Source of the DNA: Gallionella sp.
GTDB taxonomy: Bacteria; Pseudomonadota; Gammaproteobacteria; Burkholderiales; Gallionellaceae
DNA: 64,000 nucleotides
Direction of reading: 5' to 3'
Assembly: GCA_030652475.1 (NCBI GenBank)
Contig: JAUSAO010000003.1
Span: 12,960 to 76,959, forward strand
Below, in pieces: positions 6,781-17,755 of this stretch. The position numbers and the translations under genes were made by a program. Position 1 is the first letter of the stretch. Every line of letters starts with the position of its first letter. The notes beneath the pieces were generated by a model. It searched no databases, was not told the origin of the DNA, and worked only from the letters and a program-made list of their open reading frames with translations.

Positions 6781-6825
6781 TGGGGAGTTACTCCCCACTC
6801 CCCACTCCCCACTCCCCACTCACCA
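6781..6825. repeat. Heptamer tandem array (CTCCCCA)x4 plus CTCACCA, preceded by one inverted unit
   Basis: Perfect units at 6791, 6798, 6805 and 6812; inverted tggggag at 6781-6787; lies at the convergent junction of yqaA and the M17 peptidase. Confidence 0.9.
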
Positions 6826-8422
6826 TTTTTAACCCCCAGCCCACCCCGAAACCCGTTACCTCGCTGGCCACGCTACCCAGCCCGCCTTCGCAGCGACTGG
6901 CGGACAAGTCTATATGCAGCCAGGGCGTATCGTGTTCTACGAAGCGCTTCAGAAATCGTGTAGCCAGAATGTGGTCGGCCTCACCGTCCAGCGTGCATTG
7001 TTTGATATCGGCCACTTTGGAATCAAGCGCGGCTTCATAGTCTTCATCCAGCGGAAAAGCACACAGGCGTTCGCCGCTTTGGCGACCGACGTTCACCGCG
7101 CGTTGCACCAGTTCATCACGGTTACCCAGTACGCCCGAATAGCGCGCACCCAAAGCCGTCGCCATGCTACCGGTCAGCGTGGCGAAATCGATCATCAGAT
7201 CCGGTTTCTCGCGTGATGCCAACGTCAGCGTATCAGCCAGCACCATGCGGCCTTCGGCATCGGTATGCATCACCTCTATCGTCGTTCCGTTGAGCGCCTT
7301 GACGATATCGTTCTGCTTATAGGCTTTGGGGCTGATGTGGTTCTGCGCCAGCGCCAGCCAGCAGTCGATGTTCACCGGCAGTTTCTGCTGGCTGGCGGCC
7401 AGCAAAATACCCAGTGCGACACCCGAACCGTTCATGTCCTCGTGCATGTTGTGCATGTAACGCGAGGGTTTGAGATTATGCCCGCCGGTATCGAAACAAA
7501 TACCTTTGCCGACCAGCGCCACGGTCTGCTTCGCTTTGGGGTGCTTGTAGGAGAGATGCACGATGGCGGCATCATCAATTTCGCTGCCCTGAGCCACCGC
7601 AACGAACGCACCTGCACCCATCTTGCGCAACGCCTTCATGTCGTATTCCGAATACTGCCATTCGTGCTCTTGCGCCAATTTCTTCACGCGCTTGCGGTAT
7701 TGCCCCGGCGTCAGCTCATTCGGTGGCAACACGGTCAACGCTCGGCACAATAGATTGCCCGCCGCCTGCGCCCTGAATTCCTCCAGCGCCTTGCTGTCGT
7801 CAAATCCGTAAATTGCGATTTTTTGCAGTGCACGGCGTTCATCTTTCTTCTTGTGCACCGGCAGCAACGCACCGTTTACCCATGCCGCATAGGCCGCCAA
7901 TCCGGCAGCCCGTTGCCGCTGGAGCGCATCACCCAGCACCACGATGGCGATAGATTTAGGATATTCGTCCAGTAACGGTTGCAATGCCTTGCGCACCACT
8001 GTTTGCAGCGCGAAGGTATCGCCTAATGGAAAGTCGCGTAGCGCTACGCTTGCCCCCTCGCCCGCAAAGCGGGAGATAACCAGCGACTTGCCCGCTTGCG
8101 GGCTTAGTCGAATGGCTAGTTGTTCCTCCAGGGTTGGGGTGAGGGAACGGGCATGAAGAGCCTTGCTTTTGGAAACTTCACCACGCCCGCTATCGAAATC
8201 CAGCATAGCCCACACGATCAGGCCGCCATTCGTCGCATTAGCCGCAACGGGCGACTTGGCCAGCTCTTCTGCTTTCATGCCGCGCCGTGCCAGCACCGCA
8301 CGGAGCAGATCAACATGCGGCACGCCTTCGGGCAAAGTCTTGGCCTTGGGGAAAATCACCAGCACATGCAGCGCGGAAAGCGTTTCTGGCGGAGTCTGAA
8401 ACAGGGTGAGTTGTGCTAGCAT
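6788..8422 (-). CDS. M17-family leucyl aminopeptidase (PepA paralogue) with an apparent in-frame insertion
   Basis: [18 protein letters not shown] and [12 protein letters not shown] metal-binding motifs. Confidence 0.9.
8052..8154 (-). repeat. Palindromic element in frame within the M17 peptidase, with a nested 54-bp insert (8076-8129)
   Basis: Minus strand reads catgcccgttccctcaccccaaccct[54 bp]ctcccgctttgcgggcgagggggc, similar to the intergenic element at 17411-17464. Confidence 0.7.
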
Positions 8423-9297: not shown

Positions 9298-9899
9298 CCT
9301 CAATCCTCAATCCTTCACGCAACAACTTGGTGCATAATCCAGTAGTTGTGAGGGAAAGTTCCTTGCGGGCTGAATCCTGTATGTCTATCATCGTCGCGAT
9401 GGCAAAGAACCGCACCATCGGTATCAACAACACGCTGCCGTGGCGCTGCCCGGAAGACCTGAAACACTTCAAGGCGCTGACCATGGGTCACCACATGATC
9501 ATGGGTCGCAAAACCTTCGAGTCTATCGGCAAGCCGCTACCGGGGCGCACCACGGTGGTCGTCACCCGAGACCGCGAGTTGAATATCGAGGGCTGTCTGG
9601 TCGCGCATTCGCTGCCTGACGCGCTTGCAGCCTGCTCAAACGACAGTCAGATTTTTATTGTCGGTGGTGCGGAGATTTACGCACAGGCCATGCCGCTGGT
9701 GGATACGCTGTATATCACCGAAATCCAGCAGGATGTAACAGGGGATGCGCATTTCCCGCACGTTGATAAATCAGCATGGCTGGAAGTGGCGCGCGAAATA
9801 CGGCATCAGGAAACGCCGCAAGCGCTGGAATATCACTTCGTCACTTATCGCAGTGCCCATATCAATTCTTGCAAGAGCAAAGCTCTTGGCAAGAATTGA
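9294..9899 (+). CDS. folA: Dihydrofolate reductase (core domain starts near 9381; N- and C-terminal extensions)
   Basis: [50 protein letters not shown] and GDAHFP. ATGA overlap with thyA at 9294; alternative ATG at 9381. Confidence 0.93.
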
Positions 9900-9911
9900 G
9901 TAGTTCCATCA

Positions 9912-15158: not shown

Positions 15159-17375
15159 ATGACTACGCGAAAAATCCTCGTCACCTCCGCCCTGCCCTAT
15201 GCCAATGGCAGCATCCACCTGGGACATCTGGTCGAATACATCCAGACGGACATCTGGGTGCGCTTCCAGAAAATGCAGGGGAACGAGGTGCATTACGTCT
15301 GCGCCGACGACACCCACGGTACGCCCATCATGTTGCGCGCCGAAAAGGAAGGCATCACACCGGAGCAATTGATCGCGCGCGTGTGGCAGGAACACTACGA
15401 TGATTTCAGCGAATTTCACGTTGAGTTTGATCACTATGGCTCAACCAACTCGACTGAGACCCGCGAATCCGCCGAGACCATCTACCGCACGCTCAGGGAT
15501 AAAAACCTGATCGAGGTGCGTTCCATCGAGCAGTATTACGACCCGGTGAAAAATATGTTCCTGCCGGATCGCTTCATCAAGGGCGAATGCCCGAAATGCG
15601 CCGCAAAAGACCAGTATGGCGACAATTGCGAAGTCTGCGGCGCGGCCTATGCGCCGACCGAATTGATCTCACCTTATTCCGCCGTGTCGGGTGCAAATCC
15701 GGAATTGCGCAATTCCGACCACTATTTCTTCAAACTCTCCGCCGACAGCTGCCAGCAGTTTTTGCGCAACTGGACGAAGAGCGGCACGCTGCAAACCGAA
15801 GCGGCCAACAAGATGCAGGAATGGCTGGGCATCGAGGGTGAAAACAAACTGTCCGACTGGGACATCTCGCGTGACGCCCCCTACTTTGGTTTCGAAATTC
15901 CCGATGCACCGGGAAAATACTTTTACGTCTGGCTGGACGCACCGGTCGGTTACATGGGCAGCTTCAAACAGCTGTGCAACAAAAAACCCCATCCTCGCCC
16001 CAACCCTCCTAACCCCCCCATACCCCCCTTGTCAGGGGGGAGCCAATCAGGGAGGGAGACGGACACTCCTCCCCTGGCAAGGGGAGGCTGGGAGGGGTTA
16101 TTTGACGAGTTCTGGAAGGCCGGTTCAAAGACCGAGCTGTATCACTTCATCGGCAAGGACATCCTGTATTTTCACGCGCTGTTCTGGCCCGCGATGCTGG
16201 AACACGCAGGCTTCCGCACACCGACCAAGCTATTCGCGCACGGCTTCCTCACCGTCAATGGCGAGAAGATGAGCAAATCGCGCGGCACCTTCATCACCGC
16301 GCGCAGCTATGTGGATCACATCAAGAACACCGAATACCTGCGCTACTACTACGCGTCCAAACTGAACGGCACGATGGAGGACCTCGACCTCAGCCTGGAT
16401 GATTTCGTCACCAAGGTCAACAGCGATTTGATCGGCAAGTATGTCAACATCGCCAGCCGTTGTGCGGGGTTTATCAGCAAGCGCTTTGACGGCAAACTGG
16501 GCAATACGGATGCGGCGGCCAGCGCAGAATTTCAAGCGGCCTTTACCGGCGGCGAAATCGCACGTTGTTACGAAAATCGCGACTTCAGTCGTGCGCTGCG
16601 AGAAATCATGCGCCTGGCCGATGTCGCGAATCAGTACATCGCCGAAAAGAAACCCTGGGAACTGGCAAAACAGGAGGGCAAGGACGCCGAACTGCTGGAA
16701 GTGTGTTCGACAGCGCTGACACTGTTCCGCGACCTGACGCGCTACCTGAAACCCGTACTGCCCAAACTGGCAGCACAAGTTGAGGCATTCCTCAACATTC
16801 CACCCATGATCTGGGATGACCAATGGGCAGCACTGGGTAGCGGACATGTCATCAACACCTATCAACATCTGGCAACCCGCCTCGACCCCAAGCTGGTAGA
16901 AGCCATGGTGGCCGCCAATCAGGAATCCCTCCCACCCTCTCCGGCAAGCGTGCAAGGGGAAACGGTGCAGTCCGAACAGCGTCATGCCGTACATCAGCAA
17001 CACACGGCCAGCATCGAAGTAGCGCAGGCGGAAAAGGATTTTGAGCCCTTCATCAGCATCGAGGATTTCGCCAAGGTGGACTTGCGCGTGGCCAGGATCG
17101 TCAATGCCGAACAGGTGGAAGGCGCAGCGAAGCTGTTGAAGCTGACGCTGGATATCGGCGACGGAAATTCGCGCACCGTGTTCGCGGGGATCAAGTCGGC
17201 TTATGACCCGGAAAATCTCAAAGGCCGCCTGACTGTGATGGTCGCCAACCTCACGCCGCGCAAGATGAAGTTCGGCCTGTCGGAAGGCATGGTGCTCGCC
17301 GCTTCCGGCGAAGCCTCGGGACTGTTCATCCTGTCACCGGACGACGGCGCACAACCCGGTATGCGTATCAAATAA
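15159..17375 (+). CDS. metG: Methionine--tRNA ligase with C-terminal tRNA-binding domain and an in-frame palindromic insertion
   Basis: [13 protein letters not shown], Zn-knuckle CPKC/CEVC, KMSKS and C-terminal FAKVDLRVA...MKFGLSEGM. Confidence 0.97.
15987..16097 (+). repeat. C-rich/G-rich palindromic element in frame within metG
   Basis: cctcgccccaaccct...ccccccttgtcagggggg...ctcctcccctggcaaggggagg...gggagggg; encodes a Pro/Gly-rich stretch of about 37 aa. Confidence 0.8.
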
Positions 17376-17410
17376 GCCGGTTAACGTGAAACTCACGTAG
17401 TGGTACGTTT

Positions 17411-17504
17411 GCCCCTTCCCTCGCAAGGATTGCGGGGGAAGGTTGGGAAGGGGGACGGGCATGGCGGGTTTCATTATCAGGGGTGGTTACTTCCCCATGC
17501 CCGT
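17411..17504. repeat. Intergenic palindromic element plus 10-bp inverted repeat downstream of metG
   Basis: gccccttccctcgcaaggattgcgggggaaggttgggaagggggacgggcatgg; acgggcatgg (17455-17464) and ccatgcccgt (17495-17504) form a perfect IR. Confidence 0.7.
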
Positions 17505-17755
17505 TAGATTGGGTTTGAATCAACATTCCAGACTCACGCGAAGTGCTACAAACTCGCCGCCCTGGACTGCCTGCAGCAACTGAAACAAAGACAGGATTCA
17601 TAGCCCGTCCACGCTGGTGCGTGCATGGGTCTCACTGATGCCAACTCACTGACCATGTTGCCAAAATCTCATCGCTGATTTGCACATTGTGTCTTGCTAT
17701 CGTATCCTGCGCGTATCCAGCGCCCGGAAATTCTACGATACCTCCTGTGCCTAAC

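Follow-up and report, generated by a model that had tools for sequence, protein, structure and literature searches.

The M17 peptidase gene and its extra segment

The DNA analysed here is a 64,000-nt stretch of a Gallionella sp. genome (the window, to which coordinates refer unless a contig (C) or genome (G) label is given; G000 is the genome studied), in which a gene of the M17 (leucyl aminopeptidase) family is interrupted in frame by a short palindromic repeat that itself contains a second, smaller repeat. The gene lies on the minus strand at 6788-8422, is intact, and encodes 544 amino acids, of which residues 225-527 match PF00883 (E = 2e-101). A six-frame search recovered its orthologue in 12 of 30 related genomes, and all 12 match residues 1-78 and approximately 135-537, two pieces that are contiguous in the orthologous DNA. 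These orthologues are 477-490 residues long, as are nearly all among the best 120 database homologues. Protein and DNA alignments with the 12 orthologues agree on exactly 168 extra bases in the gene studied here, in frame, and the nearest insert-free allele, a metagenomic sequence that is about 90% identical (P0002), is without these 168 nt. The insert (8025-8192, ±1 nt, minus strand) amounts to 56 stop-free codons, translated SGRGEV...RDFPL, with the outer of the two repeats interrupting approximately codon 79. Its limits follow from the orthologue alignments, from P0002, and from the termini of the outer repeat family, TA(A/G)CGGGC(A/G)TGG ... C(A/G)TTA, which coincide with the orthologue-defined edges. 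The original prediction for this locus, drawn from the letters alone, had put an insertion of about 58 codons at 8021-8194. An insertion was indeed found, as the orthologues have 2 codons where this gene has 58 and not a segment of the same length; because the 58 codons replace those 2, the net gain is 56. The insert is recent on the scale of the genus.

A second allele, 92% identical and on a different metagenome contig (P0001), has the same 56 residues at the same position, and the recurrence of the same nested insert on an independent contig shows that the insert is real. The assembly comprises 146 contigs and repeats often fall at contig ends, which might speak for an assembly artefact, but the P0001 contig makes this explanation very improbable. 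We judge in the same way the possibility that the segment is an intron or intein removed from the RNA or protein. If it were excised, there would be no need for stop-free frames, yet every one of at least 10 intragenic copies of the inner repeat lies in such a frame. In addition, the segment has no intein or intron features, and an Rfam scan of 7900-8300 gave no match at E <= 10.

Outside the insert, the protein differs from its P0001 counterpart at 38 of 486 residues, as compared to 112 of 486 third codon positions, indicating a functional gene under purifying selection. The catalytic motifs are invariant across orthologues. An AlphaFold2 model based on 48 homologues was poor overall, with a mean predicted local distance difference test score (pLDDT) of 46.8. 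Its N-terminal domain was modelled confidently (pLDDT 71-91), and residues 79-135 form an excursion of pLDDT 22-29 between a strand (residues 68-74) and a helix (residues 133-151). On this model, read-through of the insert would place a 56-residue loop, with predicted disorder, between this strand and this helix of the N-terminal domain. PDB sequence matches to the protein cover the catalytic domain only.

Length variation was also seen elsewhere in this gene and its family. At the 3' end of the gene (window 6781-6800), the last nine or so codons enter an array with a 7-bp period (GGGGAGT-like), where identity to P0001 collapses; the length of the C-terminus varies between alleles. A second hot spot of insertion in the M17 family follows ...KIELYG, in the linker that immediately precedes the catalytic domain. 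Here, several unrelated inserts of 20-45 residues that resemble repetitive extragenic palindromic (REP) sequences occur in different lineages (e.g., VGANSFAQGSKNGRMNSPLQ), the carriers being orthologues L007 (G016) and L011 (G008) and proteins P0009, P0042, P0051, P0078, P0084, and P0112.

Two nested layers

The 168 nt resolve into two layers. Without 8076-8129, the insert is left with 114 nt that align over their full length with a family of palindromic repeats of about 115-125 nt, similar in kind to MITEs (transposable elements of the miniature inverted-repeat type) or REPs, with termini TAACGGGCATGG...CACGTTA. Full-length members of this outer family read TAACGGGCATGG-(spacer)-CCATGCCCGTT-CCCTCACCCC..CTCTCCCGCaagcGGGCGAGGGGG-CAAACGAATCGCTACGCGAGTTTCACGTTA. 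By alignment with them, the M17 copy has a left arm of 63 nt (8130-8192, minus strand), consisting of a diverged terminal hairpin, AGCGGGCGTGG...CATGCCCGTT, and then a C-rich arm, CCCTCACCCCAACCCT. Its right arm of 51 nt (8025-8075, minus strand) consists of a hairpin, CTCCCGCtttGCGGGCGAGGGGG, and then CAAGCGTAGCGCTACGCGACTTTCCATT. The inner layer, the 54 nt at 8076-8129, sits between the outer C-rich arm and the central hairpin. The features described in the original prediction are all present, namely the split motif, the 54-bp segment with its own hairpin, and a 14-bp palindrome at 8036-8049. Its picture of insertions piled up at one site survives as nested layers, but as two and not three: the 14-bp palindrome, described there as lying beside the 54-bp segment, is not a separate element but a diverged part of the outer right arm (family consensus CAAACGAATCGCTACGCGAGTTTCACGTTA).

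Searched with an nhmmer profile of the right arm, the genome contains 58 copies of the outer family, approximately 15 of them within long open reading frames (ORFs), and the M17 copy (C92:20983-21022) is matched at E = 5e-8. The peptide encoded by the family resembles HARSLTPTL...GEGANESLREFHV. Uninterrupted outer elements are also present in the genome, including an intergenic copy of 125 nt in the window itself, just downstream of metG (17382-17506, minus strand), and copies on contigs C23, C44, C83, and C94. The outer family has only a terminal repeat, TAACG(G/T)G, that is short and imperfect, and the M17 site shows no duplication; that the outer element duplicated a TA target there is not supported, as the empty allele is without TA.

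Further inserts of related kinds were noted. In several outer copies (C22, C28:14103, C28 (-58292), C49, and C126) a third module of about 60 nt (GAGCGTGGTTGTTGCCGACTTGTCGGCTATACAACCACGGCCTGCCCCTTGCGGGTAC) follows CATGCCCGTTCCC, which indicates that the outer element hosts more than one kind of nested insert. The metG gene (15159-17375) has an in-frame Pro/Gly-rich segment of about 37 residues (window 15987-16097, plus strand) that resembles another palindromic C-rich/G-rich element.

Structure and distribution of the inner element

The inner element (8076-8129, minus strand) matches the covariance model of a structured repeat family with 63 bits (E = 7e-11). Members begin with a conserved unpaired 5' tail, GATGAAACnAC, which is followed by three stacked stems. 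In the M17 copy, the 11-nt tail reads GGAGGAACAAC (family consensus GATGAAACNAC), and the stems, all on the minus strand, are P1 (8113-8118/8077-8082), P2 (8106-8110/8084-8088), and P3 (8099-8103/8090-8094). In the family, P1 is UAGCCA/UGGUUA, P2 is CGACU/AGUCG, and P3 is a variable hairpin that sets element lengths of 54, 59/60, or 72 nt. The predicted fold of the element reaches -21.1 kcal/mol, better than that of shuffled sequences (z = -3.0). Further support for the structure comes from covariation among 22 diverse copies, in which 98.7% of P1 and P2 cells are paired and 6 of 11 pairs show compensatory double changes. None of 500 shuffles reached the observed values, and slid controls dropped to 7-54% paired. 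At one P1 pair, 18 sequences have G.U and 4 have A-U, from which it follows that the structure belongs to one strand only.

Far from being single-copy, the 54-bp unit occurs at more than 50 places in this genome by BLAST and at 79 by covariance model. The family is present in 17 of 18 same-genus genomes and absent from all 12 that represent other families of the order, and the public metagenome-assembled genomes that hold exact copies carry the title Gallionella sp. A hammerhead-like reading of CUGAUGA...GAAAC was considered and rejected, since stem II would have no space between the two motifs, which adjoin each other.

Inner copies were also seen in several other arrangements. A 51-nt variant with different P1 and P2 (GATAAGACTACTCAATTTTGGCTAAGGGCTAAAGCCCAAGCCATCATTGAT) lies after ...ACT within the 5' tail of ordinary inner copies (C119:5421-5513, C133, C32, C11, and C100), showing that the inner family nests in itself. 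Inverted inner pairs split by a 7-nt REP remnant (...GGTTAT tcgcggg ATAACC...) are found at C135:55275-55395, and such pairs, which resemble REP doublets forming hairpins (REPINs), recur at many contig ends, including those of C24, C26, C80, C81, and C127. In the complete genome G008, 10 of 59 inner copies cluster within 45 kb (C1:1.142-1.187 Mb), and this cluster adjoins a Y1-like gene (1176647-1177072) and lies approximately 5 kb from the M17 orthologue. Within the window, a weak covariance-model match (19 bits, E = 0.06) at the 3' end of a DHFR gene (9861-9910, minus strand) may be a decayed inner copy; DHFR is longer here (201 aa) than in neighbouring alleles (164-175 aa).

Insertion rules and target sites

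The junctions of the inner element follow a simple pattern. Among full-length copies, the base at position -1 is T in 61 of 63 and the base at -2 is C or T in the same number. Empty sites keep this YT, which therefore belongs to the target, and the junction can be written YT | GATGAAAC...TAT |, with the orientation of the element relative to YT strictly fixed. The element has no terminal inverted repeats, and no target-site duplication was found at paralogous or orthologous filled/empty sites. Empty outer copies (C23, C44, C83, and C76) read ...ccccctct|cccaaaggg..., and filled ones (C98, C37, and C29) read ...ccccctct|GATGG...GGTTAT|cccaaaggg..., so that the difference is exactly the inner element. 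At the M17 locus, the flanks ...aaccct | element | ctcccgc... match the uninterrupted copy on C94.

We then classified the surroundings of 62 inner copies. Outer-type elements contain 18 of them, a REP family of sequence cccgcNNNNgcggg another 18, and a REP family reading ...ctcct^cgcaaagac a further 6; 7 lie inside or abut another inner copy, and 13 are in unique DNA. Approximately 79% (49/62) are thus in other repeat families or in one another, and these numbers, together with the exact filled/empty differences, bear out the suggestion that repeats here target earlier repeats. Two of the copies in unique DNA were covered by orthologous comparison. Downstream of groEL, the site is empty in G014, G016, and G008, where a terminator-like hairpin, caaaccccgcTTcggcggggtttg, has the loop ccccgcT^Tcggcgggg; in G000 and G006, exactly 60 nt separate the two T's of the loop. 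The nuoG 3' end is empty in G014 and G016, and in G000 and G006 it carries a 60-nt copy after ...gatt that adds 20 residues in frame. The preferred targets of the inner element are the loops or feet of GC-rich hairpins, comprising three REP-type families, its own copies, and a terminator.

These rules leave little room for the inner element being a MITE moved by a DDE transposase, or having spread, without transposition, through recombination or replication slippage from hairpin to hairpin. In favour of such a reading, DDE and DEDD insertion sequences (ISs), including IS1397 and IS621, are known to target REPs (PMC1525189, PMC3184786). However, these routes are improbable for an element that has neither terminal inverted repeats nor a target duplication at any filled/empty pair, whose orientation relative to YT does not vary, and which is found unchanged in kind at unrelated unique sites, including the groEL terminator and nuoG.

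Frame preservation

Two sense frames of the inner consensus (DETTSHSTK... and LMKQLAIRLS...) and one antisense frame are open, while the third sense frame reads TGA TGA ... TAG ... TAA. Half of the six frames carry stops, and the intragenic copies use one or another of the three that do not. Inner lengths are mostly multiples of three (54, 60, 72, 51, and 45 nt), an excess that is statistically not meaningful because there are few subfamilies, and 13 copies have a length of 59 nt. Both layers of the M17 insert are multiples of three (114 + 54). In tsaD, the whole insert is 47 codons, as compared to G008, and consists of a 59-nt inner element and 82 nt of other sequence, neither of which is a multiple of three; only the sum is, which argues for selection on total length. 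Two explanations had originally been offered for the preserved frame, selection filtering and elements whose lengths are multiples of three. The 59-nt copies speak against the second, and together with tsaD they favour the first. Frame preservation would then reflect survivorship, with loss of frame-shifting insertions and of those landing in any of the three frames with stops.

The M17 gene is one of about 15 or more genes with such in-frame inserts. Pfam matches run across the inserts in eight further genes, encoding a phosphoesterase, HypD, an XerD-like recombinase, CheB, an RfbB-like dehydratase, HsdM, Fpg/MutM, and an RNB exoribonuclease, which indicates that the interrupted ORFs are genuine genes. 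By inspection, inserts were also assigned to HsdR (two inserts), FadE, an MnhA-like antiporter subunit, and a helicase.

Order of events and conservation of the insert

Nesting implies that the outer sequence predates the entry of the inner element. It was originally suggested that the insertions were successive at the M17 site itself, but at least 15 loci share the nested arrangement, and the composite may have entered the gene in one event, with the inner element in place beforehand. We give this alternative a chance only slightly short of even. Inner subtypes are tied to outer subtypes, with copies on C98, C37, C29, C57, and C77 forming one group and C28:988 and C135:13754 another, and an M17 allele with the outer element only is absent among the best 120 database matches. 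Neither part is a multiple of three in tsaD, a probably essential gene, so that stepwise insertion would have to pass through a frameshifted intermediate; this suggests that the tsaD composite arrived in one step. For M17, on the other hand, a stepwise route is viable, as both of its parts are multiples of three. The inner subtype found there (short P3, GCCCGCAAGCGGGC) occurs in four host contexts (C92, C109, C19, and C28:7001), which indicates that the inner element moves on its own, and the tsaD and phosphoesterase composites have different left arms.

The insert is more alike between alleles than is the gene around it. Compared to P0001, 163 of its 168 positions are identical (97%), as against 89.6% in the rest of the gene (binomial p ~3e-4), and its third codon positions differ at 2 of 56, six-fold less than the 23% (112/486) seen elsewhere. 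The block of high identity reaches approximately 40-60 nt into both flanks. This low divergence may be due to constraint on the DNA or peptide, to a recent recombination tract, or to consensus effects of metagenome assembly. The first of these would mean that the insert has been co-opted, its 56-residue loop or a DNA or RNA hairpin being functional and kept by selection, and the high identity and its extension into the flanks could be read in this way. We nevertheless consider co-option unlikely. Three of the five differences from P0001 are non-synonymous and one breaks a P2 pair, so that structural conservation is not evident, and the segment is predicted to be disordered and is missing from every other orthologue. 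A recombination tract or an assembly consensus effect would explain the low divergence equally well.

A putative single-strand mechanism

We favour a reading in which the inner element is non-autonomous and is moved as single-stranded DNA by an HUH/Y1-type enzyme acting in trans, similar to those of IS200/IS605 or to the REP-associated tyrosine transposases (RAYTs), with hairpin loops acting as its single-stranded targets. A strand-specific hairpin, the lack of inverted repeats and target duplications, an orientation fixed by a short motif, and single-stranded targets together point to an enzyme of this type and away from DDE transposases. RAYTs cleave at CT dinucleotides beside REP hairpins (PMC3479197), and the genome contains an IS605-like tnpA+tnpB, an IS200-like tnpA, five RAYT paralogues, and a further Y1-like gene. 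Of these, the IS605-like tnpA is on C127, the IS200-like gene on C64, RAYT paralogues on C124, C23, C51, and C125, and the Y1-like gene on C134. We hold the reading as a whole, anatomy, insertion rules, and HUH/Y1 mobilization taken together, to be quite probable. Of these, the anatomy and insertion rules are shown, while the single-strand HUH/Y1 mechanism on its own is a tentative proposal, with somewhat less than an even chance of being correct.

Several observations weigh against this reading. None of the Y1/HUH genes in the genome could be linked to the inner element. The RAYT gene on C124 is flanked on both sides by its own GTAG-type REP, GTAGGGCGCAATAACCAACGGGCATTGCGCC, which has only about six copies, and its locus gave no covariance-model match. 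Across 18 congeners, inner copy number is not coupled to the presence of a RAYT or of the further Y1-like gene: both genes are missing from G015, which has 22 copies, and both are present in G003, which has none; G013, with 16 copies, lacks a RAYT, and G013, G015, and G018 as a group have 16-22 copies without one. An IS605-like element on C127 was rejected as the source, its ends being unlike the inner element when compared by eye, and a search of the genome for an autonomous version, with the halves of the element split by a gene, found none. In the complete genome G008, with the top strand scored and the origin set at dnaA (1.566 Mb), there is no replication-strand bias of the kind seen for IS608 and ISDra2 (31 leading vs. 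28 lagging), in a test that is blurred by copies carried passively inside composites. The inner element also has one hairpin, where IS200/IS605 elements have two subterminal ones. At the M17 locus itself, a simple model of a neutral passenger since the split of the alleles does not predict the conservation of the insert.

Two of these loci show other features. The C124 RAYT gene (C124:18793-19450, L027) is accompanied by a REP that shares the 9-mer AACGGGCAT with the outer-family terminal hairpin. The IS605-like unit on C127 (C127:~330-2140), in which tnpB and tnpA (Y1) are divergent, has a REP and an inner-element doublet 250 bp away.

It is possible, although we would put it lower than the mechanism itself, that the 54-72-nt element represents a class of mobile DNA that is both new and minimal, namely single-strand transposons that are non-coding, consist of one hairpin, insert 3' of YT in the loops or feet of other hairpins, be they REPs, terminators, or copies of themselves, and are driven in trans by an HUH enzyme. 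If so, such an element would directly generate nested repeat mosaics like bacterial interspersed mosaic elements (BIMEs) and, by riding on intragenic palindromes, would add peptide segments to housekeeping proteins. As its junction is defined and its size small, candidate HUH enzymes could readily be tested on it in vitro.

Comparison with known systems

The use of REPs as targets by full-size ISs and the presence of in-frame repeats within genes have already been described (PMC1525189, PMC3184786, PMC10969869), and a literature search on Gallionella and REP elements found no paper. The best-known examples of palindromic 'selfish DNA' carried in frame in proteins come from Rickettsia. Here the phenomenon is seen at a similar frequency in a free-living iron oxidiser, where the affected genes include tsaD, xerD-like, hypD, mutM, hsdM/R, fadE, nuoG, and the M17 peptidase gene. 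To this is added a second layer, a tiny hairpin element with clean filled/empty alleles that uses other hairpins as landing sites. The inner element thus offers a concrete and testable route to mosaic REP/BIME-like arrays and to the seeding of short peptide insertions in conserved enzymes.

The closest parallel in kind to the intragenic inserts is with the Rickettsia palindromic elements (RPEs; Ogata et al., 2000, 2002, as summarised in PMC10969869). According to that summary, RPEs are palindromic repeats of about 100-150 bp that lie in frame in many unrelated housekeeping genes and encode a conserved peptide in fold-compatible loops. Like them, the inserts described here are palindromic, in frame, and absent from orthologues (168 nt in the M17 gene, 47 codons in tsaD). 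Unlike the RPE host, an obligate intracellular alphaproteobacterium, the present host is a free-living betaproteobacterium, and its intragenic element hosts a second, smaller element, a nesting that does not figure in the RPE description as summarised. Homology with RPE-1 to RPE-10 would not be expected, as the element appears only in one betaproteobacterial genus, and the likeness is probably one of kind.

The inner element shares with REPs, BIMEs, and REPINs a short imperfect hairpin, conserved single-stranded flanks, high copy number, and mosaic and inverted-doublet patterns, and its junction after YT recalls the cleavage by RAYT (TnpA_REP) at CT beside a hairpin (PMC3479197). Unlike REPs, however, it has no 5' GTAG or CGTC tag, its tail being GATGAAACnAC and its foot UAGCCA. 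It does not flank a RAYT gene, its occurrence across genomes is not coupled to that of RAYTs, and it is precisely inserted in repeats and unique sites alike, with clear filled/empty alleles. From classical MITEs, it is set apart by its lack of terminal inverted repeats and target-site duplications.

That lack is shared with IS200/IS605 elements and their non-autonomous derivatives, the palindrome-associated transposable elements (PATEs), as are insertion in one orientation 3' of a short sequence, strand-specific imperfect hairpins, and a single-stranded target. The inner element differs from this group in its single hairpin and its length of 54-72 nt. It differs further in its target of 2 nt, as compared to 4-5 nt for known members, in its even distribution between replication strands in G008, and in having no matching autonomous IS in the genome. 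Finally, a preference for REP hairpins as landing sites is known from IS1397 and ISKpn1, which insert into REP loops, and from IS621 and ISPpu9 of the IS110 family (PMC1525189, PMC3184786). Those are autonomous elements of 1-1.5 kb with their own transposases, and IS1397 makes target duplications, whereas the inner element that has reached the same kind of site is a non-coding hairpin of 54 nt.

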